Assembly (NCBI GenBank): GCA_001801025.1
Contig: MGWO01000007.1
Coordinates: forward strand, 1,217,576-1,249,575
Reading direction: 5' to 3'
DNA length: 32,000 nt
From: Gallionellales bacterium GWA2_54_124
GTDB taxonomy: Bacteria; Pseudomonadota; Gammaproteobacteria; Burkholderiales; Gallionellaceae
This document shows, piece after piece, positions 9,245 through 29,756 of this stretch. The translations under genes were made by a program, and so were the position numbers. The notes under the pieces are model-generated. The model was not told the origin of the DNA. It saw only the letters and a program-made list of their open reading frames with translations, and did no database searches. The stretch's first letter is position 1. Every line of letters starts with the position of its first letter.

Positions 9245-9255
9245 CAAACGAATGC

Positions 9256-11339: not shown

Positions 11340-11372
11340 TTTGTGTCGCTGATTGTGTTAGAATGCGCCCCC
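11340..11372 (+). promoter_or_regulatory. Candidate extended -10 promoter for typA
   Basis: TGT-TAGAAT at 11356-11364 (extended -10). The -35 is poor. Its position argues for the ATG at 11396 as the true start. Confidence 0.35.
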
Positions 11373-11395
11373 CTACATTTAGCAAGGCTGTATCC

Positions 11396-13210
11396 ATGTC
11401 ACGCCAACTTCGCAATATCGCCATTATCGCCCACGTCGATCACGGTAAAACTACTCTGGTTGATAAGCTGCTGTCACAGGCAGGTTCTTTTTCAGCTCAC
11501 CAACACGTTGCCGAACGTGTCATGGACAACAACGATCTGGAAAAGGAACGCGGGATCACGATTCTGGCGAAAAATTGCGCGGTTGAGTTCAAAGGCGTGC
11601 ACATCAATATCGTCGATACCCCGGGTCACGCCGACTTCGGCGGCGAAGTTGAACGCGTGCTGGGCATGGTTGACGGCGTTTTGCTGTTGGTTGATGCGGT
11701 TGACGGCCCGATGCCGCAAACGCGTTTCGTGACCAAAAAGGCACTGGCCTTAGGCCTGCGCCCTATCGTTGTGATCAACAAGGTTGACCGTCCCGGCGCG
11801 CGTCCTGACTGGGTTGTGGATCAGACTTTCGACTTGTTCGACAAGCTGGGTGCGAGCGATGAGCAGCTGGATTTCCCGGTTGTTTACGCTTCTGCGCTGA
11901 ATGGCTATGCGAAGACTGAACTCGAAGCGGTCACCGACAATATGTTCCCGTTGCTGGACGTGGTCTTGAGCCATGTTCATGCACCGACTGTGGCTGCGAC
12001 TGAAGAGCCATTGCAATTACAAATTTCAGCCCTTGATTATTCGAGCTTCGTCGGTCGTATCGGCGTAGGTCGTGTGACCCGCGGCAAGATTCGTCCTGGT
12101 CAGGAAGTCATGGTCATGAATGGCGATAAGTCCTCCAAGCGCGCCCGTGTGAATCAGGTGCTGGGTTTCCGTGGCATTGAGCGCGTATTGCTCGAAGAAG
12201 CGATGGCGGGCGATATCGTGCTGATTAACGGGATCGATGAGATCGGTATCGGCGTGACCATCGCTGATATGAGCAAACCTGAAGCGCTGCCGCTGCCTAA
12301 GATCGACGAACCGACCCTGAGCATGAACCTGATGGTAAATACTTCGCCCCTGTGCGGACAGGAAGGCAAGCTGATCACCAGCCGTCAGATTCGCGATCGT
12401 CTGAACAAGGAATTACTGGTTAACGTCGCGTTGCGCGTCGAAGAAACAGACAATACCGACGTATTCCTGTTGTCAGGTCGCGGTGAGTTGCATCTGACGA
12501 TTTTGCTGGAAAACATGCGCCGTGAAGGTTTTGAGATGGGCGTGGGTAAGCCACGTGTCGTGTACCGTGAAATCAACGGCGAAAAATGCGAACCGTTCGA
12601 AATGCTGACCGTGGACGTCGAAGACGCCAACCAGGGCGCGGTCATGGAAGAATTGGGCCGCCGCCGCGGTGACTTGCAAGACATGCAACCGGACGGTCAC
12701 GGACGTGTGCGTCTGGAATACCGCGTTCCTGCCCGTGGCCTGATCGGTTTCCAGTCGGAATTTATGACGCTGACACGCGGCACCGGCATCATGGCGCACG
12801 TGTTTGACGATTACGCACCGGTCAAGGCTGATATGCCGGGCCGTCGCAACGGCGTGCTGATTTCATCCGAACAAGGCGATGCCGTAGCTTATGCGTTGTG
12901 GAAGCTGGAAGATCGCGGTCGCATGATCGTAGTTCCTGGCGACAAACTGTACGAAGGCATGATCATCGGTATTCACAGCCGCGATAACGATCTGATCGTC
13001 AATCCGATCAAGGGTAAGCAGTTGACCAACGTGCGTTCATCCGGTACCGATGAAGCGGTTCGTCTGACGCCGCCCGTACGCCTGACGCTGGAATCAGCCG
13101 TTGAATTTATCGACGACGATGAACTGGTCGAAATCACACCGGTTTCGATTCGTGTCCGCAAACGCTTCCTGACTGAAAACGAACGCAAGCGTAACGTGCG
13201 CGGCCTGTAA
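11396..13210 (+). CDS. typA: Translational GTPase TypA/BipA
   Basis: [18 protein letters not shown]1 motif, [13 protein letters not shown], about 604 aa. Start moved to the ATG at 11396 ([11 protein letters not shown]). Confidence 0.95.
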
Positions 13211-13229
13211 TCAGTCAGCATCGTTTATT

Positions 13230-13262
13230 AAAAGCCGCCAGATCATTCTGGCGGCTTTTTTG
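13230..13262 (+). terminator. Rho-independent terminator of typA
   Basis: AAAAGCCGCCAG / CTGGCGGCTTTT stem followed by a T-run. Confidence 0.85.
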
Positions 13263-13307
13263 TTGATTAAAATTGACAAGGCAGCGTAATTTTGCGAAGC
13301 TCTGATC

Positions 13308-13637
13308 ATGTCCTACCGTGCCCGAAAATTAATCGCTGTTTTGCTTGCCATCTGGTTGCCGCTCTTTAGCGGCAGTGCCTTGGCCGCCAGCGTGATGATG
13401 CAGATGCCGTCTGATACCTGTCAGGAGATGGGAATGGACGGGCATGACATGGCGCCCGTTCCTGCGCAATGCGATACCTGCGATGTCTGTCATTTGGCCT
13501 GCGGCAGTTATCTCGCCGTGCAGGCGATTTCTCATCCTGACGCACTATCCGCCGTTGCGACGGTCACACCCTATTTGCTCTCGTTTAACTCCATCACCAG
13601 CATTCCCTTGCTCCCTCCGCCTTTAGCGCTCCTCTAA
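13308..13637 (+). CDS. Small secreted Cys/His/Met-rich protein (putative metal-binding, efflux-operon associated)
   Basis: 109 aa. Signal peptide LLAIWLPLFSGSALA, then MMQMPSDTCQEMGMDGHDM and CDTCDVCHLAC. Sits directly upstream of cusCBA. No family assignment was possible by eye. Confidence 0.55.
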   Translation: MSYRARKLIAVLLAIWLPLFSGSALAASVMMQMPSDTCQEMGMDGHDMAPVPAQCDTCDVCHLACGSYLAVQAISHPDALSAVATVTPYLLSFNSITSIPLLPPPLALL

Positions 13638-13732
13638 TACAGGACGAATCCGCCTGCCGGTATCGATTTATCCCGTCCTGAAACAGGGTAGCGATCACGT
13701 TATCTGACTGATTACGCACGAGGATTAGCAAC

Positions 13733-14971
13733 ATGAAACAAATCATTTATATTTTTCTTGCCTGCTGGCTTCTTCCCGCCGCAGCTCAGCCTTTGGGCCG
13801 TGATGTGGCAAGCCTGCTCGCCTATGCGAAGGATCACAATCAGGAACTGGCCGCACTGCGTTTTGACGCGGATGCTGCCTCCCAGCGCGTGCAGCCGGCA
13901 GGCAGCCTGCCTGATCCTGTGCTGCGCACCGAACTGATGGATTTTACCAATCAGGGTAACAACAGGCCTGCCAGCCTGCTGCCGGGTAATGTGGGCGCTA
14001 CGCGATATTTGCTCACGCAGAGTGTGCCCTGGTATGGTCGTCGCGAGTTGCAAAGCAATGTCGCCCGGGCGCAGGAGAGCGGTATTCGCGGACAAGTTGC
14101 GGCACTTTGGGCCGATTTGAGCAGCAAAATTAAATCAGCCTATGCGATGCATTACTACCTGGCGGGCAGCATCAGGCTCACGCGTGAGATGGCTGATCTG
14201 ACGCAGCGCCTCGAAAAACTGGCGCAAACCCGTTATGCCAACGGGCAGGGGACGCAGCAGGAAGTGATCCGCGCACAACTTGAACGAACTGATTTGCAGA
14301 GCACGCTGATCGCATTGGCGAACGAACAACATCATGCACATACCCAACTGAATAATCTGTTGTCGCGCCCATCCGATGCCCCGCTTGCCGATCCTGAAAC
14401 GCTGCGCCCCCTGCCGAGTGCGGCAGGTCTTGGCACGCTAGACGCGTTGGTGCGCGCCAATAATCCCCAGTTACAGATCGCCGCATCCGGTGTGGATGAG
14501 GCGAAAATCAATCTCGATCTGAGCTATAAAAACCGTTATCCCGGATTCACGCTGGGGGTTGCGCCCACTCAGAGCGGAAACACGGTCAAAAGCTGGGATC
14601 TGATGGTTGAATTTAATATCCCCTTGCAGCAGGAATCGCGCCGCTCACAGGAGCGTGAGGCACAATCTCGGGTTGCGGCTGCAACTGCACGACAGGAGGT
14701 ACTGCTCAACGGCGTCCTGTCGGCTTTAGCAGAAAGCGTGTCGGGGCTTGCGAGCGCGCAGCGCACCGAAAATCTGATTGCGATGCAGATGCTGCCGCAG
14801 GCAGAGCTGTCATTTCAATCGGCGCTGAACGGTTATGCGAATGGCAAGGTCGATTTTGCCACCTTGCTCGATGCGCAGCGATTCATACTGAAAGCGCGTT
14901 TGCAACAGATCAGGGCGCAGTATGACGCTCAGCTTAGACTGGCTGAAATTGACCGCTTGACGGGAGAATAA
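13733..14971 (+). CDS. cusC: Outer-membrane efflux protein (TolC family), CusC-like
   Basis: 412 aa, signal peptide, OEP-type coiled repeats. First gene of a C-B-A heavy-metal RND operon. Confidence 0.85.
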   Translation: MKQIIYIFLACWLLPAAAQPLGRDVASLLAYAKDHNQELAALRFDADAASQRVQPAGSLPDPVLRTELMDFTNQGNNRPASLLPGNVGATRYLLTQSVPWYGRRELQSNVARAQESGIRGQVAALWADLSSKIKSAYAMHYYLAGSIRLTREMADLTQRLEKLAQTRYANGQGTQQEVIRAQLERTDLQSTLIALANEQHHAHTQLNNLLSRPSDAPLADPETLRPLPSAAGLGTLDALVRANNPQLQIAASGVDEAKINLDLSYKNRYPGFTLGVAPTQSGNTVKSWDLMVEFNIPLQQESRRSQEREAQSRVAAATARQEVLLNGVLSALAESVSGLASAQRTENLIAMQMLPQAELSFQSALNGYANGKVDFATLLDAQRFILKARLQQIRAQYDAQLRLAEIDRLTGE

Positions 14972-14973
14972 TA

Positions 14974-16566
14974 ATGAATAAAATAAAATTAATAACACTG
15001 TCTATTACGGTGATTTCTATTGTTGCAACAGGCGGCTACTGGCTGGGAAGTCATGCAGAATCTAGAACTCATAACTCAGGACTCAGGGTTCAGGAGGAGG
15101 GTTCTAAGCCGGGCGAGCAGCGCAAAATTTTGTATTACCGTAATCCGATGGGATTGCCGGATACCTCCCCCACGCCTAAAAAGGACAGCATGGGTATGGA
15201 CTATGTGGCAGTGTATCAAGGCGATGCGACGGAGGACGGTCTGGTTACCATCAGCGTCGAAAAGGTACAGAAATTAGGCGTCAGGCGCGAAGCGGTCACA
15301 CGGCGAGATGTGAATAAAACGCTGCATGTCAGCGGGCGGATTGAAATCGATGAGCGTCGCACCTATGCGATTTCCCCGAAATTCGAAGGCTGGATCGAGC
15401 ATCTGTATGTCAATAGCGCAGGACAGAGCGTGACGCGTGGTCAGCCTTTATTCGAGGTGTACAGTCCGGAACTGGTATCCGCTCAGCGTGAATACAGTAT
15501 AGCCAGGCAAGGTGAGGAGACCTTAAAGAATGCAGGTTCCGAGGCATCCCTCGGTATGAGCCAACTGGCTGAGGGCGCTCGCTCGCGGCTTAAAAACTGG
15601 GATATCGCAGACGGTCAAATCAGTCAGTCGGGCAACTCCCGCCGCACCTTGACCTATTACGCACCGGCTACCGGCATCGTGATGGAGAAAAAAGCCGTAC
15701 AGGGGATGCGTTTTTTGCCCGGTGAGACGCTGTATCAAATTGCCGATTTATCCCGTGTGTGGGTGATTGCGGATGTCAATGAGCAGGATATCGGACAGGT
15801 CAATTTAGGCGGCGTGGCACAGATTCGCATCGCGGCTTATCCAGATAAAGTTTTCGAAGGGAAAGTCGCGTTTATTTATCCGACCCTCAATGCGGCGAGT
15901 CGCACGGTTCAGGTGCGGGTGGAACTGGACAATCAGGCAGGGAAACTCAAGCCCGCGATGTTTGCCAGCGTCACCTTGCCGACGGCTAATCATACTGAGG
16001 TGCTGACGGTGCCTGTTTCATCCGTGATCGACAGCGGTAAGCGAACGATCGTGATCGTTGAGCGCGCCCCCGGGCTTTTTGCACCACGCACCGTGACTGT
16101 CGGCCAGCGCGGCGATGAGTACGTCGAAATACGGGCGGGGCTTGCGGCGGGCGAACAGGTCGTCACCTCAGCACTGTTCCTGATCGATGCAGAAAGCAAT
16201 CTTAAAGCCGTACTGAGTGGCCTCGGCGGGGAGGATAGCGCGATCCCGGCAAAGCCTGTATTGGCACCGGAGACCGCGAAGCCTGTGATCGCCAAACCCA
16301 CTGTCGTTAAAAGCCCTGTCGTTAAGCGGGTTGGTCATCAGGCGGTTGGTGTTTTTAATTCGATCAATCCGGACGGTTCGGTGAGCATTACCCACGAGGC
16401 GATTAAAACGCTGGGCTGGCCCGGCATGACGATGGATTTTGCACTCGCCAATGCCTCGCTTTCAAGCGGCCTGAAGGCGGGGAGCCGCATTCGCTTTGAG
16501 ATTGTCGAGCGCAAACCCGACGAATGGGTAATTACCAGTCTGCACGACGTCTCACAGGAGCATTAA
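14974..16566 (+). CDS. cusB: RND periplasmic adaptor CusB-like with C-terminal CusF-like domain
   Basis: 530 aa. The N-terminal ILYYRNPMGLPDTSPTPKKDSMGMDYV looks like a metal-binding segment. An HlyD/MFP barrel core follows. After a Pro/Lys/Val linker, the last roughly 85 aa (HQAVGVFNSINPDGSVSITHEAIKTLGWPGMTMDF...) resemble the periplasmic Cu/Ag chaperone CusF. Confidence 0.85.
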   Translation: MNKIKLITLSITVISIVATGGYWLGSHAESRTHNSGLRVQEEGSKPGEQRKILYYRNPMGLPDTSPTPKKDSMGMDYVAVYQGDATEDGLVTISVEKVQKLGVRREAVTRRDVNKTLHVSGRIEIDERRTYAISPKFEGWIEHLYVNSAGQSVTRGQPLFEVYSPELVSAQREYSIARQGEETLKNAGSEASLGMSQLAEGARSRLKNWDIADGQISQSGNSRRTLTYYAPATGIVMEKKAVQGMRFLPGETLYQIADLSRVWVIADVNEQDIGQVNLGGVAQIRIAAYPDKVFEGKVAFIYPTLNAASRTVQVRVELDNQAGKLKPAMFASVTLPTANHTEVLTVPVSSVIDSGKRTIVIVERAPGLFAPRTVTVGQRGDEYVEIRAGLAAGEQVVTSALFLIDAESNLKAVLSGLGGEDSAIPAKPVLAPETAKPVIAKPTVVKSPVVKRVGHQAVGVFNSINPDGSVSITHEAIKTLGWPGMTMDFALANASLSSGLKAGSRIRFEIVERKPDEWVITSLHDVSQEH

Positions 16567-16567
16567 G

Positions 16568-19500
16568 ATGCTACAAAACATCATCGTCTGGTCGGCTCGC
16601 AACCGATTTTTAGTGCTGCTGGCGACAGGATTCATTGTGCTGGCGGGTGTTTATGCGATGTACAAGACGCCGCTGGATGCCTTGCCCGATTTATCCGATG
16701 TACAGGTCATTGTTTATACTGAATATTCAGGTCAGGCGCCGCAGGTGGTCGAGGATCAGGTGACCTATCCGCTGACCACGGCGATGCTGGCGGTGCCCAA
16801 ATCCCGTGTGGTGAGGGGCTTCTCCTTCTTTGGCGCTTCCTTTGTGTATGTGATTTTCGAGGACGGTACCGACATCTACTGGGCCAGATCCCGCGTACTG
16901 GAGTCGCTGGCCAGCATTGCCGGACGAATGCCGGCCGGTGTCGCGCCGCAACTGGGGCCGGATGCGACAGGGGTGGGCTGGGTGTACCAGTATGCGGTGC
17001 TCAGTGAAAAACACAATCTCGCTCAGTTGCGCACCATGCAGGACTGGTATTTACGCTATCAGTTGACCAAGGCGCATGGCGTCTCGGAAGTCGCCTCGAT
17101 AGGCGGTTTTGTGCAGCAGTATCAGGTAAGCGTGGATCCGGTCAAACTGCGCGCCTACGGCATTGCGCTCAAGACCATATCGCAGGTTATCCGGGATTCA
17201 AATCGCGATGTCGGCGGTCGCGTGGTGGAGATGGGCGAGACCGAATACATGGTCAGAGGGCGCGGCTATCTGCGCGGCAAAACGGATATCGAGACGCTGG
17301 TGGTGAAAGCGGATCGTGGCACACCGGTGCTGCTGCGCGATATCGCGCGCGTCGAACTCGGGCCCGACGAGCGGCGCGGCCTGACTGAACTTGATGGCGA
17401 AGGCGAAGTCGTGGCGGGGATTGCGATGGCGCGGTTTGGCGAAAATGCGCTGGAGGTCATTGAAAACCTCAAGCATAAGCTCACTGAAGTCTCGGCAGGG
17501 CTGCCCGAGGGCGTATCAATCCGCGCTGTGTACGATCGCTCAGAACTGATCAAGCGTGCAATCGACACCCTCAAACACACGCTGCTCGAAGAAGGCCTGA
17601 TCGTGGCGCTGGTCTGTATGGTGTTTTTGCTGCATGTCAGAAGCGCACTGGTGGCGATTTTAATGCTGCCGGCCGGTGTGCTGATCGCGTTTATCGCCAT
17701 GCATGCGCTGGGGATGAATTCAAACATCATGAGTTTAGGGGGAATCGCTATTGCAATCGGTGCGATGGTGGATGCGGCGATCGTGATGATCGAGAACGCA
17801 CATAAACACATTGAGCGATTAGGGGAGGGCGAGTCGCGTAGTGATGCGATTATTGCCGCCTGCCGCGAGGTTGGCCCGTCGCTATTTTTCTCCTTGCTGA
17901 TTATCACGGTGTCATTTTTGCCGGTATTCACGCTCGAATCCCAAGAAGGGCGACTGTTTTCACCGCTTGCCTATACCAAAACGTTTTCTATGGCGGGCGC
18001 GGCGTTGCTGTCGGTGACGCTGGTGCCGGTGCTGATGCTGCTGTTTATTCGCGGGCCGATTCTGCCTGAGCAGAAAAATCCGCTCAATCGCTGGATGATC
18101 AGGTTCTACCGTCCGCTGATTGCTGCCGTACTGTCGAAGCAGAAAACCACCGTTGCGATCGCGCTGCTGGTGTTGGCTCTGTCCGTCTATCCTGCGATGC
18201 GATTGGGCAGCGAGTTTATGCCGACGTTAAATGAAGGCTCATTGCTGTATATGCCAGCCTCGTTGCCGGGTATGTCGGTCACGAAGGCGGCCGAGTTGCT
18301 GCAAACGCAGGACAAGATCATCAAGTCGTTCCCGGAAGTCGCTTCCGTGTTCGGCAAAGCGGGCAGGGCGCAGACTGCAACTGATCCTGCGCCGCTGGAA
18401 ATGTTCGAGACGGTGATCAATCTAAAGCCTCAGGATCAGTGGCGTCCCGGCATGACCACCGATAAACTGGTCGCCCAGATGGATCAGGCCCTGCAATTTC
18501 CCGGTGTAGCCAATTCCTGGACGATGCCGATCAAAGCCCGCATCGATATGCTCTCAACTGGAATCAGAACACCTATTGGAATCAAGGTGTTCGGCAAGAA
18601 TCTTGAGGAAATGGAGCAGCTTTCAAAACAGATCGAGAGCGTGGTGCGGCAGGTGCCGGGCACATCCAGCGCGTATGCGGAACGGTTAACGGGCGGCGCT
18701 TATCTTGATATTGAGCCCGATCGTATGGCGCTGGCGCGTTACGGCCTGACGGTGGGTGATGTGCAGGATGTGATTGCGACCGCCTTAGGCGGCGAGACGG
18801 TCACCACCACGGTGGAAGGACGGGAGCGCTTCGGTGTCAACGTGCGATATCCGAGGGATTTGCGCGGCACACCGGAGGAGATTGCCCGCGAAGTGTTAGT
18901 CACCACTCAGGACGGCGCGATGATTCCGTTGGGGCAGGTGGCCAGAGTTATTATTAATCGCGGCGCACCGTCGATCCGTACCGAAAACGCGCTGCTCTCG
19001 GCGTATATCTATGTGGACATCAGGGACCGCGACATCGGTTCATTTGTCGCCGATGCGCGCCGGGCGGTGAACCAACAGGTCAAATTTCCGCCGGGCTATT
19101 ACGCGACCTGGAGCGGTCAGTTTGAATATATGGAGCGTGCCTATGCGCGCATGAAGATCGTGATTCCGATCACTTTGCTGCTGATCTTCCTGTTGCTGTA
19201 TCTCAATTTCAAACGGGTGACGGATTCCCTGATCGTGATGCTGTCGGTGCCCTTTGCGCTGGTCGGCGGTTTATGGCTGCTGTGGCTGCTCGATTACAAC
19301 GTATCGGTCGCCGTTGCGGTCGGGTTTATCGCGCTCTCAGGCGTGGCGGCTGAAACGGGTGTTGTGATGCTGATCTATCTTGAGCAGTCATGGCAGGCGG
19401 TGCTGGCGCGCTGCAAGGATGAAGGGCGCGCGGCCACGGTGCAGGATTTACATGATGCCATCATGCACGGCGCAGTCGAGCGGGTACGCCCCAAGATGAT

Positions 19501-19672
19501 GACGGTGGTCGCGATCATGGCGGGCCTGTTGCCTATCCTGTGGAGCACGGGTACGGGGTCTGAAGTGATGCGACGCATCGCCGCCCCAATGGTGGGCGGC
19601 ATGATTTCGTCGGCTATTCTGACGCTGTTGGTCATCCCGGTGCTGTTTGCGCTGGTAAAAGGAAAAAAATGA
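16568..19672 (+). CDS. cusA: Heavy-metal efflux RND pump, CusA type (Cu/Ag)
   Basis: 1034 aa. The TM4 signature GGIAIAIGAMVDAAIVMIENAHK matches the monovalent-cation (CusA) class rather than the CzcA DFGIIVDGAV class. Confidence 0.92.
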   Translation: MLQNIIVWSARNRFLVLLATGFIVLAGVYAMYKTPLDALPDLSDVQVIVYTEYSGQAPQVVEDQVTYPLTTAMLAVPKSRVVRGFSFFGASFVYVIFEDGTDIYWARSRVLESLASIAGRMPAGVAPQLGPDATGVGWVYQYAVLSEKHNLAQLRTMQDWYLRYQLTKAHGVSEVASIGGFVQQYQVSVDPVKLRAYGIALKTISQVIRDSNRDVGGRVVEMGETEYMVRGRGYLRGKTDIETLVVKADRGTPVLLRDIARVELGPDERRGLTELDGEGEVVAGIAMARFGENALEVIENLKHKLTEVSAGLPEGVSIRAVYDRSELIKRAIDTLKHTLLEEGLIVALVCMVFLLHVRSALVAILMLPAGVLIAFIAMHALGMNSNIMSLGGIAIAIGAMVDAAIVMIENAHKHIERLGEGESRSDAIIAACREVGPSLFFSLLIITVSFLPVFTLESQEGRLFSPLAYTKTFSMAGAALLSVTLVPVLMLLFIRGPILPEQKNPLNRWMIRFYRPLIAAVLSKQKTTVAIALLVLALSVYPAMRLGSEFMPTLNEGSLLYMPASLPGMSVTKAAELLQTQDKIIKSFPEVASVFGKAGRAQTATDPAPLEMFETVINLKPQDQWRPGMTTDKLVAQMDQALQFPGVANSWTMPIKARIDMLSTGIRTPIGIKVFGKNLEEMEQLSKQIESVVRQVPGTSSAYAERLTGGAYLDIEPDRMALARYGLTVGDVQDVIATALGGETVTTTVEGRERFGVNVRYPRDLRGTPEEIAREVLVTTQDGAMIPLGQVARVIINRGAPSIRTENALLSAYIYVDIRDRDIGSFVADARRAVNQQVKFPPGYYATWSGQFEYMERAYARMKIVIPITLLLIFLLLYLNFKRVTDSLIVMLSVPFALVGGLWLLWLLDYNVSVAVAVGFIALSGVAAETGVVMLIYLEQSWQAVLARCKDEGRAATVQDLHDAIMHGAVERVRPKMMTVVAIMAGLLPILWSTGTGSEVMRRIAAPMVGGMISSAILTLLVIPVLFALVKGKK

Positions 19673-19726
19673 CAGGCAACGTGATTGAACTTGATGGGCA
19701 ATTGTTAAAATTAAAGCGGATTCGCA

Positions 19727-19822
19727 TTAATACCAACGTATGCAATCACCGGCGGTTTGGGGTCTGGAAAATCGCTCGTTTCTATCGGCCGCATTCAAGA
19801 TTATTTGAAACATGGTAGTCGT
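19727..19822 (+). pseudogene. zot / pI assembly ATPase, N-terminal fragment (Walker A only)
   Basis: In-frame translation reads LIPTYAITGGLGSGKSLVSIGRIQDYLKHGSR, the P-loop N-terminus typical of Zot-like proteins. There is no ATG, and homology stops abruptly at the terminator hairpin at 19824. Confidence 0.65.
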
Positions 19823-19850
19823 AAGGGGGCTTGCGCCCCCTCTTTTTTTA
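19823..19850. terminator. Conserved bidirectional terminator hairpin, copy A
   Basis: AGGGGGC-ttgc-GCCCCCT followed by a T-run. The same hairpin recurs at 21117-21140 and 28419-28438. Confidence 0.7.
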
Positions 19851-19866
19851 CGGTTATGAGAATTGT

Positions 19867-20112
19867 TTAGAAAAATGATTTCAGTACTAAAGCCACAACG
19901 CCGCCCAGTACTAAGCCGGTCATCCATTTTAATATCTGAAGTTCTGCTTTCATGGGTGCTAGTTCTAATTGAATGTCTTTTTTTGTGACTAGCTCCTGAT
20001 CGTTGGACGCATCGCGGTAGGCGTTCGCAATTGCTTCGGCCTGGTTGTTTTGCATACCGCTGGCTTCAGGTGTTTTAACGAATTTCAGGGTGTCGAATGT
20101 AACGGTGCTCAT
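19867..20112 (-). CDS. DUF1640/CCDC90-like small membrane-anchored coiled-coil protein (cargo copy A)
   Basis: 81 aa: MSTVTFDTLKFVK...QAEAIANAY...LVTKKDIQ...C-terminal TM helix. The FDT-x-KFV / AEAIA pattern is recalled from the DUF1640 family. Paralog at 28441-28686. Confidence 0.6.
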   Translation of the reverse strand: MSTVTFDTLKFVKTPEASGMQNNQAEAIANAYRDASNDQELVTKKDIQLELAPMKAELQILKWMTGLVLGGVVALVLKSFF

Positions 20113-20136
20113 GATGTTCTTTTCGGTTGATGGTTA

Positions 20137-20165
20137 AGACTAAATCATTTTCACTACATTAGCAA
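20137..20165 (-). promoter_or_regulatory. Candidate sigma70 promoter of cargo slot (copy A)
   Basis: On the minus strand: TTGCTA (20165-20160), 17 nt, TAGTCT (20142-20137). The block is retained in all three copies. In copy C, homology begins about 5 nt upstream of the -35. Confidence 0.45.
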
Positions 20166-20330
20166 TTTAGTGACCACTCGATGCACTCTCCTGGACGTAA
20201 AAAAACTTTCCGCCTCGATGCTCAACCGTCCCGCTTTTTGCCCGAGAAGAAAAAAGGGTTTCGGGCGGTGTTGATCTGCTGGATCTGACCCGAAGACCGT
20301 AGGGTTCGGCAGTCGTCCCGCCGAAGGTTA
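20138..20330. repeat. 193-bp repeat R, copy A (cargo leader plus 165-bp structured distal part)
   Basis: Aligned by eye to 21691-21883, it shows 3 mismatches in 193 nt. The first roughly 30 nt also match 28711-28743. Confidence 0.9.
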
Positions 20331-20332
20331 AC

Positions 20333-20950
20333 GGTTTGATTGTTCTTGATGATTTTTAATTCGCGTGAATGGGCTGACAAGGGCAGGGCGGCTGTTATCG
20401 CATGGCTTCGCCATTCTCGTAAACTCGGTTGGGATGTCATTTACATTATGCAAGACGTGAATTCTATTGATAAGCAGATTCGCGCCGGATTGATTGAGCA
20501 TGAGGGCGTTTGTAAGCGTTCTGACCGTATGTCATTGCCTTTTGTTGGTGGTATTTTACGTGCTCTCGGTCTTGGTTTTTTGAGTCGTCCGCCTCGTGTT
20601 CATGTCTGCACTGTTAAATATGGCCTTTCCCAGCATGCTCTGTCGTTGATCGTTGGATGTATCGTGGTGTCTTGCTTCAGGATGGTTACGACACGAATCA
20701 GATTTTTAGTGAATTTGATGTTAACGGTGACTCTGTCGGCATTCATTCTATCTTAAGTCCTTGGCATACGCGGGGGCGTTATTTGCCTCCGCCGTTTTTG
20801 ACTCTTTTTCTGCTCTACCTTCGTGGTACTCCTTGGCGAAAGCCGGTTTCAACCTTCAAGCATCCGTTGGTTTCTCGCATCATGAAATTACCGCCGGAAC
20901 GGCGGATAGAGTTTTTCAATCGTTTTGATTCTTGCGGTGCATTTTCATGA
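20333..20950 (+). pseudogene. zot / pI assembly protein body, at least two frameshifts
   Basis: Walker B GLIVLDD (frame 2) hits a stop and the protein resumes in another frame as FNSREWADKGR...HSRKLGWDVIYIMQDVNSIDKQIR. A second shift near 20650 leads into RWMYRGVLLQDGYDTNQIF...LSPWHTRGRY. Confidence 0.7.
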
Positions 20951-21066
20951 GGTTGGTTATTTTGTGTTGCTTGGCTGTCTCGGCTTGTTCGTTTCCTTCG
21001 CATCGTGATGTTTATCTTGATTGGTACAAGTGTATGCAAAACAATTATGTGAAAGATTGTGATTGA
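20947..21066 (+). CDS. Small lipoprotein overlapping zot stop (ATGA), copy 0
   Basis: 39 aa: MRLVILCCLAVSAC|SFPSHRDVYLDWYKCMQNNYVKDCD. Lipobox-like signal and a shared W-x2-C-x8-DC pattern with the ORF at 28177-28308, which sits in the same position. Too short for the ORF track. Confidence 0.55.
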   Translation: MRLVILCCLAVSACSFPSHRDVYLDWYKCMQNNYVKDCD

Positions 21067-21110
21067 GATTTCCCGATCACAGCTGTATGCCGCGTCTTTA
21101 CTGGGTTTGA

Positions 21111-21146
21111 AAAAAGAAAAGGGGGCTTTCGCCCCCTTTTTTTCTC
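21111..21146. terminator. Conserved bidirectional terminator hairpin, copy B
   Basis: AAAAGGGGGC-tttc-GCCCCCTTTT, with an A-run before and a T-run after. Confidence 0.75.
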
Positions 21147-21163
21147 TGGCCGTTGGCTAATTG

Positions 21164-21391
21164 TTAAGCTGTTGCATACCGCCTTACATCTAACTCAACG
21201 CCATGTTGTGCGGCCTGATTTGCTTGCTCTAACAATGATCGGGTGATTTTTGCATCGTGGTAAGCCTCTCCGCAATTTTCACAAACTTCTGCGGGAACGT
21301 TTTTAAACATCATTGTCGAGTTGCCGCGTTCTAGCGTAATGCTTGCAACACCGTGTTGTGTATTTCCGTGTTTGCAAATTGGACATTTCAT
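21164..21391 (-). CDS. MqsA/YgiT-type zinc-ribbon antitoxin-like protein
   Basis: 75 aa: MKCPICKHG...NVPAEVCENCGEAYHD (CxxC...CxxC, YgiT-type zinc-finger pattern). It starts 2 nt after the stop of the upstream DUF4258 gene. Confidence 0.7.
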   Translation of the reverse strand: MKCPICKHGNTQHGVASITLERGNSTMMFKNVPAEVCENCGEAYHDAKITRSLLEQANQAAQHGVELDVRRYATA

Positions 21392-21393
21392 TT

Positions 21394-21666
21394 TTATCTC
21401 CTTGTTTTCAGGTCTTCGAGCCAGATTTCTGGGTTTGGCTCGTATACCGTAATTATGATTCTGATGTCTTCGTCGACAGAGTCGGCGTATACAACGTGAA
21501 CAGCCTTGTTTCCTGCATGTCCTAATAACAGTGCGCTAGGATAGGGCGTGTCATTCGGGTATGCCTCAATAATTGTTCCGGTTTCAATTGCCTGTTCTAC
21601 GTCAATTTCTGATATGCAACGCTCATGCATTCGCTTGATGGCGTGTTGTCTGTAAATTATCCGCAT
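21394..21666 (-). CDS. DUF4258-family toxin-like protein
   Basis: MRIIYRQHAIKRMHERCISEIDVEQAIETGTIIEAYPNDTPYPSALLLG...HVVYA...IIITVYEPNPEIW matches my recollection of the DUF4258 pattern. Start set at the ATG at 21666, which follows the conserved leader/RBS. Confidence 0.7.
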   Translation of the reverse strand: MRIIYRQHAIKRMHERCISEIDVEQAIETGTIIEAYPNDTPYPSALLLGHAGNKAVHVVYADSVDEDIRIIITVYEPNPEIWLEDLKTRR

Positions 21667-21690
21667 GCTTTTCCTTCGTTTGATTGTCAA

Positions 21691-21883
21691 GACTAAATGA
21701 TTTTCACTACATTAGCAATTTAGTGACCACTCGATGCACTCTCCTGGACGTAAAAAAACTTTCCGCCTCGATGCTCAACCGTCCCGCTTTTTGCCCGAGA
21801 GGAAAAAAGGGTTTCTGGCGGTGTTGATCTGCTGGATCTGACCCGAAGACCGTAGGGTTCGGCAGTCGTCCCGCCGAAGGTTA
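21691..21883. repeat. 193-bp repeat R, copy B
   Basis: See 20138-20330. The two flanks diverge immediately after ...CCGCCGAAGGTTA. Confidence 0.9.
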
Positions 21884-21969
21884 TCCAGTCAGCGCGCAGC
21901 CTGTTTTTTAATCACGGAGCTTTTCGCCGTTGATTTTTATTTATCGCGCTGGGGTGTTATTGTGACTTT

Positions 21970-22226
21970 ATGATATTTCATCCATACCCAGTTTGGTCTG
22001 TTGTAATCCGTAATCATTTTTGGACTCTGCGTTATATTCGCGGATTCAATGAGTCGCGGAGACGTCAGCAATATTGGCTAATCGAGAAAGAAAAAAACGC
22101 CTGTATGAAACAGGCGTTGATAGTGAAGTGGTGCGGTTGTTATGCCGAGATATGGCAATTCCTCGGAATCCTCATGCTGAAAAGCGCTTTTGGGATGAAT
22201 TTCATAAGCCCGCGAATTCTCCATAA
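21970..22226 (+). pseudogene. attP-adjacent 85-aa basic protein homolog, frameshifted in an A7 tract
   Basis: The first 42 codons parallel 29460-29717 with many synonymous differences. After A7 (22091-22097, versus A8 in the other copy) homology continues in the +1 frame (KRLYETGVDSEVVRLLCR...KRFWDEFHKPANSP, stop at 22224-22226). Confidence 0.7.
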
Positions 22227-22608
22227 TTTTCTTCTTATATTTGACATAATATACATTTGAATTCAACGAGTTACGATCTAACCCTATCAATTCACTTGCA
22301 TTTGCTGGGGCAGGTGTCATGTTTAAAATGACAGCACCTAATATCACCGACGCGGCATGACTCACAAAAGGGAGCAATACCGCTCTTCTTTCCTGATTTT
22401 TTTCTGTTATTAATTCGCTTGCTGAAATTACTTCCATTTCATTTATTGTTAATAGTTGAGCAATTTGACAACAAACTGCGATTGGTAAACCTGCGCGTCC
22501 GTTTTTTGCATTTGTAATTTGTTGAGAAGATACGCCAAGATAATCGGCTAATTCCTTTTGGCTCCCGACTTCCATTATTGCTAAGACAATGTAATTTTTC
22601 ATATTCAT
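22078..22608 (-). CDS. HTH (Cro/CI-type) phage repressor-like protein; ORF reads through the dif-like site
   Basis: MNMKNYIVLAIMEVGSQKELADYLGVSSQQITNAKNGRAGLP is an HTH. A hydrophobic segment follows (ASVILGAVILNM). AGGAG RBS before the ATG at 22608. There is no stop before the attachment site, and the 28-mer itself encodes NSNVYYVKY. Confidence 0.65.
   Translation of the reverse strand: MNMKNYIVLAIMEVGSQKELADYLGVSSQQITNAKNGRAGLPIAVCCQIAQLLTINEMEVISASELITEKNQERRAVLLPFVSHAASVILGAVILNMTPAPANASELIGLDRNSLNSNVYYVKYKKKIMENSRAYEIHPKSAFQHEDSEELPYLGITTAPLHYQRLFHTGVFFFLD
22096..22118 (-). terminator. Minus-strand intrinsic terminator embedded in the 85-aa ORF (copy 0)
   Basis: AACGCCTG / CAGGCGTT stem. 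On the minus strand it is followed by the T7 run. It lies downstream of the repressor gene, across the dif-like site. Confidence 0.55.
22239..22266 (-). other. dif-like XerC/D site, hybrid (XerD arm and spacer intact, XerC arm degenerate)
   Basis: Plus strand: ATTTGACATAA TATACA TTTGAATTCAA. The reverse complement of the first 17 nt is TGTATA-TTATGTCAAAT, against E. coli dif TGTATA-TTATGTTAAAT. The last 11 nt do not resemble a XerC arm. Confidence 0.7.
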
Positions 22609-22620
22609 TATTTTCTCCTG

Positions 22621-22688
22621 TTGACATACAAATTTATTTGATTTATTGTGTCGATCAAATAAGTTTGTATGCAATTAAATTTGTATGC
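22621..22688 (+). promoter_or_regulatory. Rightward promoter candidate plus three operator-like 9-mers
   Basis: TTGACA (22621-22626), 17 nt, TATTGT (22644-22649). TTTGTATGC occurs at 22664-22672 and 22680-22688, and its near-complement ACATACAAA at 22624-22632. Confidence 0.5.
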
Positions 22689-24967: not shown

Positions 24968-24976
24968 GTCAATTAA

Positions 24977-25288
24977 ATGGCTTTTACTTGCGTCCCAGTC
25001 GTTGCTCAGTGGGGTACTGTCTCCTACATCAACACGAATCAAGCCGCATGCGCTGCTAATCAGTGGGCTGTGTTCACCTCTGCTGATTTGACTGCCTATA
25101 ACGCATCTTTAACCGCTGGCACGGCTTCAACCCCTGCCGTTACACAAACAACGTCATTCTTTCCCTCGATGACGATTGCGGAGGCTCTGCCCATATTTGC
25201 AGCTATCTCGCTGCTGTGGGGGCTGGCTTTCACCTTGAGGGCTATTGGTAATTTTCTAAAACCTAAATCTGGAGATTCAAATGATTAA
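24977..25288 (+). CDS. Small C-terminally anchored protein (possible minor coat protein)
   Basis: 103 aa with a C-terminal TM (LPIFAAISLLWGLAFTL). Its first 120 nt recur with one synonymous change at 31881-32000. Confidence 0.5.
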   Translation: MAFTCVPVVAQWGTVSYINTNQAACAANQWAVFTSADLTAYNASLTAGTASTPAVTQTTSFFPSMTIAEALPIFAAISLLWGLAFTLRAIGNFLKPKSGDSND

Positions 25289-25608: not shown

Positions 25609-26886
25609 ATGGATTCTCTTCGCTCCCTAGTTTTACTTCTCGCCGTGTTTTTTTCCGGCCATGCTTTTGCTGGTGTTGATTACTCTCAACCCCAGCAGTC
25701 ATTCTCTGCACAAAGCTTGTCAGGTTCTTTTTCTAGCGCTGGGCTTATGCTTTCCGCTTTTATGTCTCATTTTCCGCAATATACGTCCTGTACTTTTGAT
25801 GGCGTCAACTCGCATCCAATTCTCTGCGATGGCACTGGCGGCGGCGGACCTTATACTCAGCAACCTATGGGTGTCGGTTATGCTTCTGCCCCTCTTTGCC
25901 CTTTATCATCTACGTTTAATTCTGTTTCTGGTCAGTGCGAAAAGCCAAATTCATGTACGGCTGGCCAGACTATTTTTGCTGGTCGTTGGTCGTCTATGCC
26001 CTCAAACGGCTGTAATTCAGGGTGTAATGCAGTTTGGACAGGCTCAAACGTTGCGGGAAGTTCCTCTAATTTTTCCGGTTCTGCTGTCCTCGATGGGTCG
26101 TCATGTTCTGGTGGATCGGCTGTGCCTCCTCCTGATTTGCAGGATATAACGGCTTGTCCATCTGGCCCGACTGGCCCGACTTCCTGCGCTGCTGGCGAAT
26201 CACTCGTTATTCAGGGTTGTACAGCATCTTGCTCCCCTAATACTCAGTCTGGTACTTCCGGATCAACGACTGGCGGCACTACTGGCGGCACTACTGGCGG
26301 TACAACTGGTGGCACAACTGGTGGCACAACTGGTGGTACAACTGGCGGTACAACAGGCGGTACAACTACCACAAACAACACGACAAACAATGTTGATATG
26401 TCGCCCGTCACGGCTGCGGTCGATGCTGCAACGGCTGCAATCAAGGCAGGAACGCTTGTCCAGTACTGCATCGATCATCCTGATGCGAATATCTGTCAGA
26501 CCAATGTCATTAATGCCGCTTGCGGTTCTTTTAACTGCTCTGGTGACGCTATTCAGTGCGCGATCGCAAAAGATCAATTTGACCTTCATTGCAAGCTTGC
26601 TAATGAGCAAAACGCCAATCTTGATATAGGCAAAAGGATGATTGATGGAACGGACACTAGCGTCAGAAATCCCGCTGATGTCGCTAACCGCTCCACTTTC
26701 TCAATTGGTTCTTTGGATATGAGTTCCCCCATTGCGGCCAAGTGCCCGGACGATGTTGTTTTTACTGTCATGGGTAAGTCGTCAACTTTGCCGTTGTCTC
26801 TCTGGTGTCCTTATCTCGCTCTTGTCGGCAATGTTTTCATGGCCTTGTCTCTTGTCGCTGCTGCTAAAATTATCGGAGGTGTTTAA
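25609..26886 (+). CDS. Adsorption / minor coat protein (gpIII-like)
   Basis: 425 aa. Signal peptide, Cys-rich N-terminal domains, (TTGG)x8 flexible linker, C-terminal membrane anchor. Confidence 0.7.
   Translation: MDSLRSLVLLLAVFFSGHAFAGVDYSQPQQSFSAQSLSGSFSSAGLMLSAFMSHFPQYTSCTFDGVNSHPILCDGTGGGGPYTQQPMGVGYASAPLCPLSSTFNSVSGQCEKPNSCTAGQTIFAGRWSSMPSNGCNSGCNAVWTGSNVAGSSSNFSGSAVLDGSSCSGGSAVPPPDLQDITACPSGPTGPTSCAAGESLVIQGCTASCSPNTQSGTSGSTTGGTTGGTTGGTTGGTTGGTTGGTTGGTTGGTTTTNNTTNNVDMSPVTAAVDAATAAIKAGTLVQYCIDHPDANICQTNVINAACGSFNCSGDAIQCAIAKDQFDLHCKLANEQNANLDIGKRMIDGTDTSVRNPADVANRSTFSIGSLDMSSPIAAKCPDDVVFTVMGKSSTLPLSLWCPYLALVGNVFMALSLVAAAKIIGGV
26266..26361 (+). repeat. 12-bp tandem repeat x8 encoding (TTGG)n linker
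   Basis: ACN ACN GGN GGN is repeated 8 times with synonymous third-position variation. Confidence 0.9.
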
Positions 26887-27191
26887 TGCCCGCAATTGGT
26901 GTTGTTATTGGCTGGCTTGTTGGTGCAATTGGCCTTACGCTTGCAAATTGGGTCGGTCGTGTTTTGGTTGCTCTCGGTATTTCTTACATCACGTTCAGCG
27001 GTGTTGATCTACTGTTTTCGAGCCTAAAAACTGAAATTTGGTCACTGCTCGGCGGTGCTGGTCAGCTTTCCGGTGTCATCGGTCTTTCCCGCATTGGCGA
27101 ATCGGTCAACATCGTTTTTTCCGCCTTGATCGCTAAAATGTCCCTTTCTGGCATGACTGGCGGTAAGCTCACTAAACAGGTCATCAAGTAA
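26886..27191 (+). CDS. gpVI-like minor coat protein (DUF2523-like)
   Basis: 101 aa and hydrophobic. TAATG overlaps on both sides. Located immediately upstream of zot, as in many inoviruses. Confidence 0.6.
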   Translation: MPAIGVVIGWLVGAIGLTLANWVGRVLVALGISYITFSGVDLLFSSLKTEIWSLLGGAGQLSGVIGLSRIGESVNIVFSALIAKMSLSGMTGGKLTKQVIK

Positions 27192-28180
27192 TGGCTATCG
27201 ACCTAACGCCGCTTACTGTTGTCACAGGTTTGCCCGGATCGGGCAAGACGCTTTTTACTCTTACTGGTGTTGATGAGTACTCCAAGCGTGAAGGCTTCAA
27301 GGTCTACTATCACGGCATTCCTCAATTGACGCTTGATTGGGAAATGCTCGAAGAGCCTAAGCAGTGGCACAACCTGCCGAACAAGTCGATTATTGTCATC
27401 GACGAATCACAAAGTACGTTCCCGCCCCGATCATCGTCGGCCGCCATGCCTGAACATGTCGCAGCTGCCAATACCCTGCGCCACAAGTCGCACATGCTGG
27501 TTTTGATTACGCAGCATCCGATGCTGATCGACGGGTCGATCCGCAAGCTTTGCACAAAGCATTATCACGTTGAGCGTTTTTACGGCTTTCAAAAATCAAC
27601 GATTCATGAGTTTTTGAAGATCCGCGACAACTGCGACAAATCCACTAAAGGCTCTATCTCTACGCATTTTGTTTATCCAAAAGAGGTTTTTAACTGGTAC
27701 AAAAGTGCGGATATGCACACGATCAAGAGGCGCATCCCCGCGCGTCTTATTATGATTATTATTCTGCCTTTGATCGCTGTTGCGCTGGTTTATTTATTCA
27801 TCAAAACTGTGGGAGGTTTGACTACTGGAGATAAGATTAAAGGGGGGGCTGCTTCACCCACCACCGGAGTTCAAGCGGTTTCAGGTGTCATTGCCGTTCC
27901 TGTTTGGACTGACACATTAAAGCCTCGGTTGTCCGGTTTTCCGCACACAGCCCCGCGTTATGATGAAGTGACTAAGCCGACTGTTGCGCCTTATCCCGCC
28001 GCGTGTGTTTCGTCTGAATCTCGTTGTGTCTGTCACACGCAACAGGGAACTAAAATGCTTGTCGATGATGCTCTTTGTCGGAGCATTGCCAGCAACGGAT
28101 TTTTTAATGATTTTCTTGAGAAAAAAACGGATTCATCGCCTGTTTCTCAAGTCCCTCGGCCTTCGTTATCGTCGCTATGA
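27191..28180 (+). CDS. Zot-like / gpI assembly ATPase
   Basis: Walker A VVTGLPGSGKT, Walker B IIVIDESQ, a mid-protein TM segment (LIMIIILPLIAVALVYLF) and a periplasmic C-terminal domain. Confidence 0.85.
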   Translation: MAIDLTPLTVVTGLPGSGKTLFTLTGVDEYSKREGFKVYYHGIPQLTLDWEMLEEPKQWHNLPNKSIIVIDESQSTFPPRSSSAAMPEHVAAANTLRHKSHMLVLITQHPMLIDGSIRKLCTKHYHVERFYGFQKSTIHEFLKIRDNCDKSTKGSISTHFVYPKEVFNWYKSADMHTIKRRIPARLIMIIILPLIAVALVYLFIKTVGGLTTGDKIKGGAASPTTGVQAVSGVIAVPVWTDTLKPRLSGFPHTAPRYDEVTKPTVAPYPAACVSSESRCVCHTQQGTKMLVDDALCRSIASNGFFNDFLEKKTDSSPVSQVPRPSLSSL

Positions 28181-28308
28181 TTAAAAAACTTTTCTGGATT
28201 CTGATGGTCGTTTTGATGTCTGGCTGCATGTCTACGCCTGAATCCCGCCATGCTGAAACTGCTGCATGGTGGTCTTGTACTAATCTCCATCGTGTTGGAG
28301 ATTGCTGA
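28177..28308 (+). CDS. Small lipoprotein overlapping zot stop (ATGA)
   Basis: 43 aa: MIKKLFWILMVVLMSGC|MSTPESRHAETAAWWSCTNLHRVGDC. Lipobox LMSGC. Homologous in position and Cys pattern to 20947-21066. Confidence 0.55.
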   Translation: MIKKLFWILMVVLMSGCMSTPESRHAETAAWWSCTNLHRVGDC

Positions 28309-28410
28309 ATATCGAGGCGAAGCGCACGCGGCTAACGAAGTGCCGCGAAGCTCGCCCGATATTTATTTTCTTCGATCGCAGCTGTATGCCGCGTATTTAC
28401 TGGGTTTTAT

Positions 28411-28442
28411 AAAAAGGGAAGGGGGCTTGCGCCCCCTTTTTT
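28411..28442. terminator. Conserved bidirectional terminator hairpin, copy C
   Basis: AAGGGGGC-ttgc-GCCCCCTT flanked by A- and T-runs. Confidence 0.75.
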
Positions 28443-28686
28443 AATGCATTTTCATCAGTATTCCGATTAAAACGGAGAATTGAGCTAGTGCTAGGCCGAT
28501 AATCCATTTAAGCATATCGAATTTCATATCGGTCAGCTGAATTTGTAGATCTTGTTTTGTTACGAGCTCTCTGTCGTCTGATGCGCTTTGATAGGCATTT
28601 GCAATTCCTTTTGCTCTCTCTTCGTCAAAACCGCTTTTTTTAAGTATTTCAACGAATTTCAGGGTGTCGAATGTCACTGTGCTCAT
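28441..28686 (-). CDS. DUF1640/CCDC90-like small membrane-anchored protein (cargo copy C)
   Basis: 81 aa: MSTVTFDTLKFVEILKKSGFDEERAKGIANAY...LVTKQDLQ...TM helix. The N-terminal 12 aa are identical to copy A and the rest has diverged. Confidence 0.6.
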   Translation of the reverse strand: MSTVTFDTLKFVEILKKSGFDEERAKGIANAYQSASDDRELVTKQDLQIQLTDMKFDMLKWIIGLALAQFSVLIGILMKMH

Positions 28687-28743
28687 GATGTTCCTTTCGG
28701 TTGATGGTTAAGACTAAATCATTTTCACTGCATTAGCAATTTA
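28687..28743. repeat. Cargo leader/promoter, copy C (truncated R)
   Basis: Matches 20113-20169 with 2 mismatches by eye. Homology ends right after the -35 TTGCTA, at the stop codon of the next ORF. Confidence 0.85.
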
Positions 28744-29145
28744 CGCGAATAACTGCCTGTTTTTTTTGGGTGTCCAGTCAGCCCATTTTAGAATATCTGC
28801 CACAATTACCAGCTCGAGCACGTCTTGAATGGGTGCAACTTGCTTGGCCGCTGGCATTTTGAAATTCTTTACCCATTTTTTCAGCCATTCGGCTGAATTT
28901 TCCTTAATCTCGGCCATGATTTGCAAGGCCACGCCAACAGCATCAACGAAGTCCAGCCACGTTTGACGGGCTTTAAATTCCGCGTTTTTCATGTATCTGC
29001 AATTGTTGATTTTCATGGTTTTGGTATTCCCAGCATCTTCCAGAATCTTGAGCCTGCTTTTGATTTCCTCGCGGTGCAGGTTTCTGCCGCTTGCTTCTTT
29101 GCTTCTCCCGTCATCCCGTCGCCTTGCGATATCAGCTCGTAGCAA
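28741..29145 (-). CDS. Orphan hypothetical protein occupying the position of the distal part of repeat R
   Basis: 134-aa ORF with a TTG start; internal ATGs would give 91 or 83 aa. No recognisable motif and no clear RBS. Confidence 0.35.
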   Translation of the reverse strand: MLRADIARRRDDGRSKEASGRNLHREEIKSRLKILEDAGNTKTMKINNCRYMKNAEFKARQTWLDFVDAVGVALQIMAEIKENSAEWLKKWVKNFKMPAAKQVAPIQDVLELVIVADILKWADWTPKKNRQLFA

Positions 29146-29728: not shown

Positions 29729-29756
29729 ATTTGACATAATATACATTATGCGTATT
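29729..29756 (-). other. dif-like XerC/D recombination site, near consensus
   Basis: The reverse complement reads AATACGCATAA TGTATA TTATGTCAAAT, against E. coli dif GGTGCGCATAA TGTATA TTATGTTAAAT. The spacer is identical, the XerD arm matches 10/11, and the XerC arm shares CGCATAA. Confidence 0.8.

Follow-up and report, generated by a model that had tools for sequence, protein, structure and literature searches.

The question raised by this locus is why the same short signals bracket different genes in neighbouring filamentous prophages. The window, a 32,000-nt stretch of the genome of Gallionellales bacterium GWA2_54_124, contains from ~19.7 kb on an array of filamentous prophages (inoviruses) integrated at dif, the chromosome terminus. 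Three times in this array a GC-rich hairpin, one or two small minus-strand genes and a conserved leader follow one another. The original prediction read these three copies as a cargo slot between zot and the phage attachment site (attP) of dif-integrating inoviruses, with cargo differing between copies, and this outline was read correctly and is supported here. We consider it probable that each copy is a moron-type accessory cassette of the dif-integrating filamentous phages of Gallionellaceae, which is expressed in the lysogen and exchanged by homologous recombination among co-resident prophages. The three copies (A, B and C) comprise the following features.

19823-19844, plus strand: hairpin A (GGGGGCTTGCGCCCCC), with a T-run on the plus strand only.
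19867-20112, minus strand: cargo A, an 81-amino-acid DUF1640-like protein with a C-terminal membrane helix (...LKSFF subtype); CCDC90-like profile at 27.2 bits, PHROG 17872.
20113-20169, minus strand: leader A, with the conserved core and a weak ribosome-binding site.
21117-21143, no strand: hairpin B, bidirectional terminator-like.
21164-21391, minus strand: YgiT/MqsA-type zinc-ribbon protein, putative antitoxin, without a helix-turn-helix (HTH) domain; TIGR03831 at 53 bits, Pfam MqsA_antitoxin at 30.7 bits.
21394-21666, minus strand: DUF4258 protein, putative toxin of the RelE/ParE superfamily; PF14076 at 87 bits against a cut-off of 25.
21667-21722, minus strand: leader B, with the conserved core.
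28415-28442, no strand: hairpin C, bidirectional terminator-like.
28441-28686, minus strand: cargo C, an 81-amino-acid DUF1640-like protein (...LIGILMK subtype); CCDC90-like profile at 32.0 bits.
28687-28743, minus strand: leader C; its 5′ TAA serves as stop codon for the open reading frame (ORF) upstream, orf83.

Each copy has one GGGGGC-N4-GCCCCC hairpin (at 19825, 21121 and 28421). The leader core AAGACTAAATNATTTTCACTNCATTAGCAA was present exactly three times (at 20136, 21689 and 28710) and in none of 100 shuffled sequences, so that the predicted three-fold architecture of hairpin, minus-strand genes and leader is real. The conserved leader is ~45-57 nt long and occurs nowhere else in the window. 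Leaders A and C agree at 55 of 57 positions, leaders B and C at ~87-90% over 48-60 nt. The bracketing sequences had been described as 97-98% identical; this nearly holds for leaders A and C and for the right flanks of A and B (203 of 209 positions), and fails for the leaders of B and C and for their left flanks, which agree at 55 of 70 positions over the longer span. The hairpin stem is invariant and the loops vary (TTGC, TTTC, TTTT and CGTA), as expected of a terminator. In copies B and C the hairpin is followed by a T-run on the cargo strand, as in the terminator of a moron, and the description as a bidirectional terminator is right for these two; copy A no longer has a T-run on the cargo strand. 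The AGGAA-type ribosome-binding site announced for copy A reads AAAAGAAC.

Related loci (L numbers) were gathered by protein-anchored look-ups among contigs of Gallionellaceae and Nitrosomonadales. Blastn with both cassette regions gave no match among 50,697 phage records. The sequences flanking the cassettes in the window, with which these loci were compared, are as follows.

20170-20330, no strand: conserved non-coding backbone region, the copy next to cassette A (the "161-nt" region; repeat family D2).
21074-21108, no strand: 35-nt backbone block, copy B, the left flank of the cassette; 33 of 35 positions identical to 28373-28407.
21723-21969, no strand: conserved non-coding backbone region, right flank of cassette B, present in filled and empty phages.
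21970-22230, plus strand: orf96, a diverged member of the attP-adjacent orf85 family by sequence comparison.
28373-28407, no strand: 35-nt backbone block, copy C; the match to copy B at 33 of 35 positions is as predicted.
28741-28992, minus strand: orf83, the alternative right flank, listed as a 134-amino-acid ORF and called as 83 amino acids in related contigs.
29460-29717, plus strand: orf85, the conserved last gene before attP, with 35 homologues; in seven loci a dif-like site follows it after 0-30 nt.

Five combinations of cargo and right flank were found across the window, L043, L020, L017 and L060. Cargo A is joined to the 161-nt/orf96 flank in the window and in L043. The toxin-antitoxin pair is joined to the same flank in the window and in L020, from Gallionella capsiferriformans ES-2, and to the orf83/orf85 flank in L017. 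Cargo C has the orf83/orf85 flank in the window and the 161-nt/orf96 flank in L060, a contig also numbered L027. The toxin-antitoxin pair of L017 stands behind a secretin gene, between the same hairpin stem and leader, and the 35-nt block is absent; measured against this locus, the leader keeps ~92% identity over its 34-nt core and the coding DNA 80%. The changeover between the right flanks coincides exactly with the 5′ end of the core TAAATTGCTAATGYAGTGAAAATSATTTAGTCTT, and the leader of L060 has one base of the A/B type followed by sequence of the C type. Recombination had been predicted to reshuffle cargo and flanks, and these combinations bear this out.

The copies could also be one region shared by three related phages and diverged by vertical descent, without any exchange, the A-B repeat being a recent local duplication or shared ancestry in a decaying tandem array. 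Copies A and B do lie 1.5 kb apart within one degraded stretch, and cargoes A and C belong to two old subfamilies, both of which also occur in chromosomes. In the toxin-antitoxin lineage, moreover, cargo (91-92% identical) and leader (91%) are equally conserved relative to ES-2, so the predicted pattern of conserved flanks around diverged cargo is not a general one. However, vertical descent does not account for both cargo families occurring with both right flanks in five combinations, nor for a DUF1640-like gene and an unrelated toxin-antitoxin pair standing behind the same leader and hairpin. We regard it as unlikely, also in view of the empty sites described below.

In three independent assemblies (L061, L054 and L058) the site is empty, without hairpin, cargo or leader. 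Here a 329-amino-acid zot, the lipoprotein ORF, a diverged 35-nt block, GTTCAAA and the non-coding backbone follow one another. L060 has this same backbone with ~395 nt added, namely an A-run, the hairpin, cargo C, the leader and GTGACCACTCGAT, so that a single backbone exists both with the cassette and without it. At both borders of the L060 insert a short, diverged homologous patch gives way to otherwise identical DNA, which points to import by homologous recombination. Because the empty phages have neither hairpin nor leader, these two belong to the cassette and travel with the cargo; they had been taken for the fixed walls of a slot. The comparison of filled and empty sites identifies the 35-nt block and the non-coding region as the true backbone flanks. 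In wider comparison, the interval from zot or the secretin gene to orf85 and attP holds a DUF1640-like gene, the toxin-antitoxin pair, nothing, a 129-amino-acid membrane ORF or a retropepsin-like gene, and other phages with an orf85 homologue have different genes between zot or secretin and orf85.

The same borders bear on a further explanation, in which a self-mobilising cassette has the hairpin and the leader as its two ends and moves site-specifically or as a single strand (integron-like, or by the rolling-circle Rep or Xer) and not by homologous recombination. The same short ends do bracket unrelated cargo; the outer contexts differ (after the lipoprotein gene, after the secretin gene, before the 161-nt region or before orf83), and replication takes the phage genome through a single-stranded stage in which hairpins can form. 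Yet the phages encode no recombinase and can draw only on host Xer, the ends do not match each other as inverted or direct repeats, the window has no further copy of the leader, and the junction of L060 with L061 has no target duplication and shows homology patches that fit homologous recombination. Such movement is most improbable. The related idea of a portable "expression chassis" made up of G5C hairpin and 45-nt leader, which would move itself and swap ORFs between inovirus backbones, is in our estimate very improbable too; its mechanism might work on hairpins while the replicating phage is single-stranded, and if true it would be a cassette system of filamentous phages, integron-like in logic, in place of ordinary homologous recombination. 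A gene cassette of the integron type was considered and rejected, with no integrase in the phages and no repeated site at the L060/L061 borders.

Comparison of the loci shows that related phages, which lie side by side in tandem at dif, have acquired, lost and recombined cassettes by homologous recombination; the crossovers are placed in the backbone flanks, at the leader or within it. By the same comparison cassettes outlive their phages, and remnants stripped of all else retain an intact cargo gene. The exchanged unit runs from the hairpin through one or two small genes, opposite in strand to the phage structural operon, to the ~45-nt conserved putative promoter/leader, and is seated in non-coding backbone, with the zot-lipoprotein operon on one side and the attP-proximal module on the other. 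In the lysogen the structural operon would be silent, and a weak sigma-70-type promoter within the leader (TTGCTA-17-TAGTCT) would drive transcription of the cassette. The G5C hairpin would stop this transcription and, in the opposite direction, would also end the zot operon.

Several points weigh against the exchange of lysogen-expressed cassettes as set out here. The evidence from L060 is that of one assembly, and the empty site may be either the ancestral state or a deletion. Used as a DNA anchor, the leader had one match in the genome collection, in one other species (L001/L017, a Nitrosomonadales metagenome-assembled genome), and no match in the scan of viral contigs; its sole metagenome match, L002, was discarded as an unrelated AT-rich chance match. 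With the leader in one other species and no relatives in the viral and metagenome collections, the sample is small and closely related. Only two cargo families, with three alleles, stood behind the leader in all collections searched. No cargo protein matched a known defence family in PADLOC. The promoter, as originally written, matches the consensus at 7 of 12 positions, and the promoter scan made no call there. In the C-type context the stop codon of orf83 opens the leader, and cargo C could therefore be the second gene of an orf83 operon.

The last two of these points also favour a different role of the leader, in which the conserved 45 nt are an operator or an intercistronic regulatory element and the cargo is transcribed from upstream, from orf83 or the 161-nt region. 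All 45 nt are near-invariant, the spacer included, which is more than a promoter needs. But the leader moves with the cassette into varied upstream DNA, and each context would then need an upstream promoter of its own. In addition, a search for an operator common to the phage regulatory regions found no shared 9-mers of note and nothing related to the leader, and Rfam, run on 19-32 kb, gave sub-threshold chance matches only. A role other than that of a promoter accordingly has a small chance in our judgement, and the position, conservation and co-transfer of the leader argue for a putative promoter. The leader is not a promoter native to the DUF1640-like family, since chromosomal paralogues (L032, L034-41) have unrelated upstream DNA.

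Cargoes A and C are 53% identical as proteins. Their scores against CCDC90-like/DUF1640 (PF07798), 27.2 and 32.0 bits, lie just under the cut-off of 33.5 and cover the N-terminal part only. We therefore label them "DUF1640-like"; the ORFs named in the original prediction are there, while the family assignment stays below threshold. Database homologues of this cargo bear the precomputed PF07798 label. The cargo A protein was read in identical form on 20 contigs. The AlphaFold model of cargo C consists of two helices, including the C-terminal membrane helix, with a mean predicted local distance difference test (pLDDT) score of 67, which is low confidence. The DUF1640-like proteins match PHROG 17872; relatives of theirs occur in 55 viral contigs, mostly not of inoviruses, and the chromosomal copies sit in islands rich in toxin-antitoxin genes, as neighbours of ParE, RelB and HicAB pairs. 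One type of hairpin, GGGGAGACTTCGGTCTCCCC with a T-run, adjoins these chromosomal paralogues, on both sides in L034-41 and upstream in L032/33. A Y1 transposase gene lies near in L037 and L041, and these hairpins may thus be elements of the repetitive extragenic palindromic (REP) kind.

The cargo of copy B was predicted as a DUF4258 protein with a zinc-ribbon partner, and both were recovered (87 bits for DUF4258, 53 bits for the YgiT zinc ribbon). DUF4258 is a member of the RelE/ParE superfamily, and natural fusions of it to MqsA are on record (PMC11980606). The zinc-ribbon protein does not have the full MqsA architecture; it has 75 amino acids and scores 30.6 bits against 61.8 with TIGR03830, over profile positions 1-59 of 127. 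The two genes are separated by 2 nt (21394/21391) and are kept together in L017, L020 and L048. Synonymous and non-synonymous codon changes in the two genes number 16/4 and 17/3 relative to ES-2, and 32/15 and 30/7 relative to L017. By these counts, purifying selection acts on the toxin-antitoxin genes in remnants from which the phage itself is gone. A search of the viral contigs with the DUF4258 alignment found no relatives. In GC content, cargo C (38.6%) departs from the phage (47%), and neither cargo A (44.7%) nor the toxin-antitoxin pair (44.3%) is distinct. The DUF4258/zinc-ribbon pair would be a type II toxin-antitoxin module that stabilises the array at dif or aborts infection. The DUF1640-like product would be a small membrane-anchored helical protein, for which exclusion or host modulation is a guess.

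Copies A and B had been assigned to separate prophage copies. Both lie in one degraded 2.5-kb stretch (19.7-22.26 kb) made of two fused remnants, P_A and P_B, with the following phage features beside the cassettes.

19722-19815, plus strand: the first ~30 codons of zot, with the Walker A motif, of the oldest remnant P_A; translation ..YAITGGLGSGKSLVSIGRIQDYLKHGSR.
20331-20950, plus strand: zot pseudogene of P_B, from about codon 88 to the end, frameshifted; Pfam Zot profile positions 93-149.
20932-21066, plus strand: small lipoprotein-like ORF after zot, homologous to 28177-28308.

The 19722-19815 segment is the sole surviving part of the morphogenesis module of P_A, and its DNA is 78% identical to the start of the intact zot of L011. 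Along the stretch the zot frame opens at ~19722, breaks at 19815 and resumes at 20331, with 61-76% amino acid identity to the intact L011 zot; ~57 zot codons are missing relative to L011, and cassette A occupies their place. The backbone region next to cassette A is cut at 20330 and joined there to the middle of the P_B zot. In L043, another Gallionella genome, the A-type non-coding sequence continues into orf96 and dif, and the order is CzcA, a 30-codon zot stub, hairpin, cargo A, leader, non-coding region, orf96, a complete dif and the chromosome. ES-2 has cassette B only at the same chromosomal position. A alone in L043 and B alone in ES-2 identify A as the cassette of the older remnant P_A and B as that of the second remnant P_B. 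Either the two remnants were joined in the window by deletion, or L043 was formed by recombination between the 209-nt repeats; the diagnostic bases of L043 fit the A-only state equally well as ancestral or as a deletion between these repeats. In ES-2 (L020, 10619-11489), ~870 bp lie between CzcA and a C-terminal zot stub and contain a 181-amino-acid Gly/Thr/Asn-rich ORF unrelated to any window sequence. The 161-nt region was also considered as a discrete structured element and rejected, as its conservation relative to ES-2 continues past its end; the DNA fold z-score was −0.63, and 1 of 57 predicted pairs showed two-sided change.

The remainder of the window places the cassettes in their array. 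The chromosome occupies positions 1-19672, and a CzcCBA-type efflux operon closes this part. This part is 89% identical to ES-2 and 98-100% identical to L022, L023, L043 and L047, which are Gallionella metagenome-assembled genomes and groundwater metagenome contigs. After the fused remnants come the complete phage 2 (22.27-29.73 kb) and the beginning of phage 3, which starts at 29.76 kb and extends past the window end. Phage 2 has a full inovirus gene set (Rep_trans, coat, pIII-like, DUF2523 and Zot). The landmarks of these phages are the following.

22239-22266, plus strand: hybrid dif/attP junction, with the XerD arm and central region kept and the XerC arm replaced.
27191-28308, plus strand: zot (329 amino acids) and the small lipoprotein ORF of phage 2; Pfam Zot.
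29729-29756, plus strand: complete dif-like site ATTTGACATAATATACATTATGCGTATT between phage 2 and phage 3, with no mismatch to the site adjoining chromosomal DNA in L043 and L020.

The hybrid junction has eight mismatches to dif, all within its last 11 nt. Inovirus genes, no integrase and a dif-like integration site with a hybrid junction identify these phages as dif-integrating inoviruses, and the dif-like site adjoins chromosomal genes also in L043 and L020. The repressor ORFs at 22078-22674 and 29746-30246, both on the minus strand, run through the dif junctions, and the 198-amino-acid repressor ORF as listed is lengthened by remnant sequence past the junction at 22239-22266.

The orf85 family (85 amino acids) was always the last gene before the dif-like attP, in the window and in L003, L005, L009, L011, L012, L017 and L020. 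This position is constant across elements with different replication genes (Rep_trans, Phage_CRI), and an orf85 homologue from Nitrotoga adjoins genes without called inovirus domains. The protein has no match in Pfam, matches PHROG 27692 (unknown function), and a search of the viral contigs with it found no relatives. It could be a candidate accessory factor for Xer-mediated integration. For orf83, no family match was obtained in Pfam, PHROGs or PADLOC.

Phages 2 and 3 share a structural module that is 99% identical from 24976 onward (24976-25096 against 31880-32000; also in L026 and L058), and their replication/repressor modules are unrelated (Rep_trans against Phage_CRI), which amounts to a second module swap within the array. 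At the right end of phage 3 (L054, 2300-2510; L058, ~5150-5360) the non-coding backbone region is kept and there is no orf85-type gene. Its right junction differs, reading ..TTTTCATAACTACGCA and then the chromosomal arm TTATGCGTATT, which suggests another type of attP. A further small element encoding a DUF3653/HTH protein, which we take to be of the family of XafT, the Xer activator of TLCphi, adjoins the remnant or prophage in ES-2 (L020, 7300-9100) and in L012, L013 and L015. Several different Xer-dependent elements may thus share this dif site. In the pIII-like gene, a 12-nt tandem repeat (GGYACWACTGGY, at 26239-26370) encodes Gly-Thr-Thr-Gly, and the length of this gene varies from 421 to 461 codons among related contigs.

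Morons were described in tailed temperate phages by Juhala, Hendrix and colleagues as extra genes between backbone sequences, with their own promoter, a stem-loop terminator, atypical base composition and expression in the prophage. The Gallionella cassette is like these in being present or absent among close relatives and in having a putative promoter of its own, a stem-loop terminator and, for cargo C, an atypical GC content. It differs in that its phage is a filamentous phage with single-stranded DNA, that its expression is predicted, and that the base composition of cargo A and of the toxin-antitoxin pair does not stand out from that of the phage. In CTXphi, which uses XerCD/dif and forms tandem arrays, ctxAB lies downstream of zot and before the attachment region. 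The cassette occupies the corresponding place, between zot and the attachment region of tandem dif-using phages, but on the strand opposite to zot, whereas ctxAB is on the zot strand and encodes a secreted toxin. We know of no description of shared expression signals around alternative cargo for ctxAB.

A close published likeness is in the dif-integrating filamentous (and tailless) prophages of Vibrionaceae. An accessory gene hot spot lies close to the border of these prophages and most commonly contains toxin-antitoxin pairs, and homologous recombination between co-infecting relatives at identical flanks was proposed (PMC11630473). Toxin-antitoxin cargo in inoviruses has also been published (PMC6813254), and the novelty claimed for a slot in dif-integrating inoviruses was overstated. 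As in Vibrionaceae (PMC11630473), one variable locus breaks conserved synteny near the border here, with toxin-antitoxin content, integration at dif and often several prophages together. Here, however, the host is Gallionella, an iron-oxidising betaproteobacterium of fresh water, one or two genes make up the locus, always on the opposite strand, unrelated cargo has the same short putative promoter/leader and hairpin, and the exact insertion borders and the empty site are resolved. In Pf phages the near-identical cores of Pf4 and Pf6 differ mainly in toxin-antitoxin genes at the edge, the PfiT/PfiA and KKP modules (PMC12328805); unlike the Gallionella phages, Pf phages integrate by their own integrase at tRNA genes, and their toxin families differ.

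Taken as a whole, the earlier observation is partly confirmed and its interpretation partly supported. The cassette is a real, well-resolved feature and an instance of a known phage habit, not a new kind of system; its modest novelty is that unrelated cargo has the same short, putative expression signals. It opens no new class of mechanism, and its two small genes are candidates for prophage stabilisation or exclusion. With an empty site, a filled site and exact borders, it provides a base-level example of how very small phages gain and trade genes that affect the host. It extends the accessory hot spot of marine Vibrio to environmental iron-oxidising Betaproteobacteria, in which a toxin-antitoxin pair and a small membrane protein outlast their source phage and become fixtures beside the chromosomal dif.

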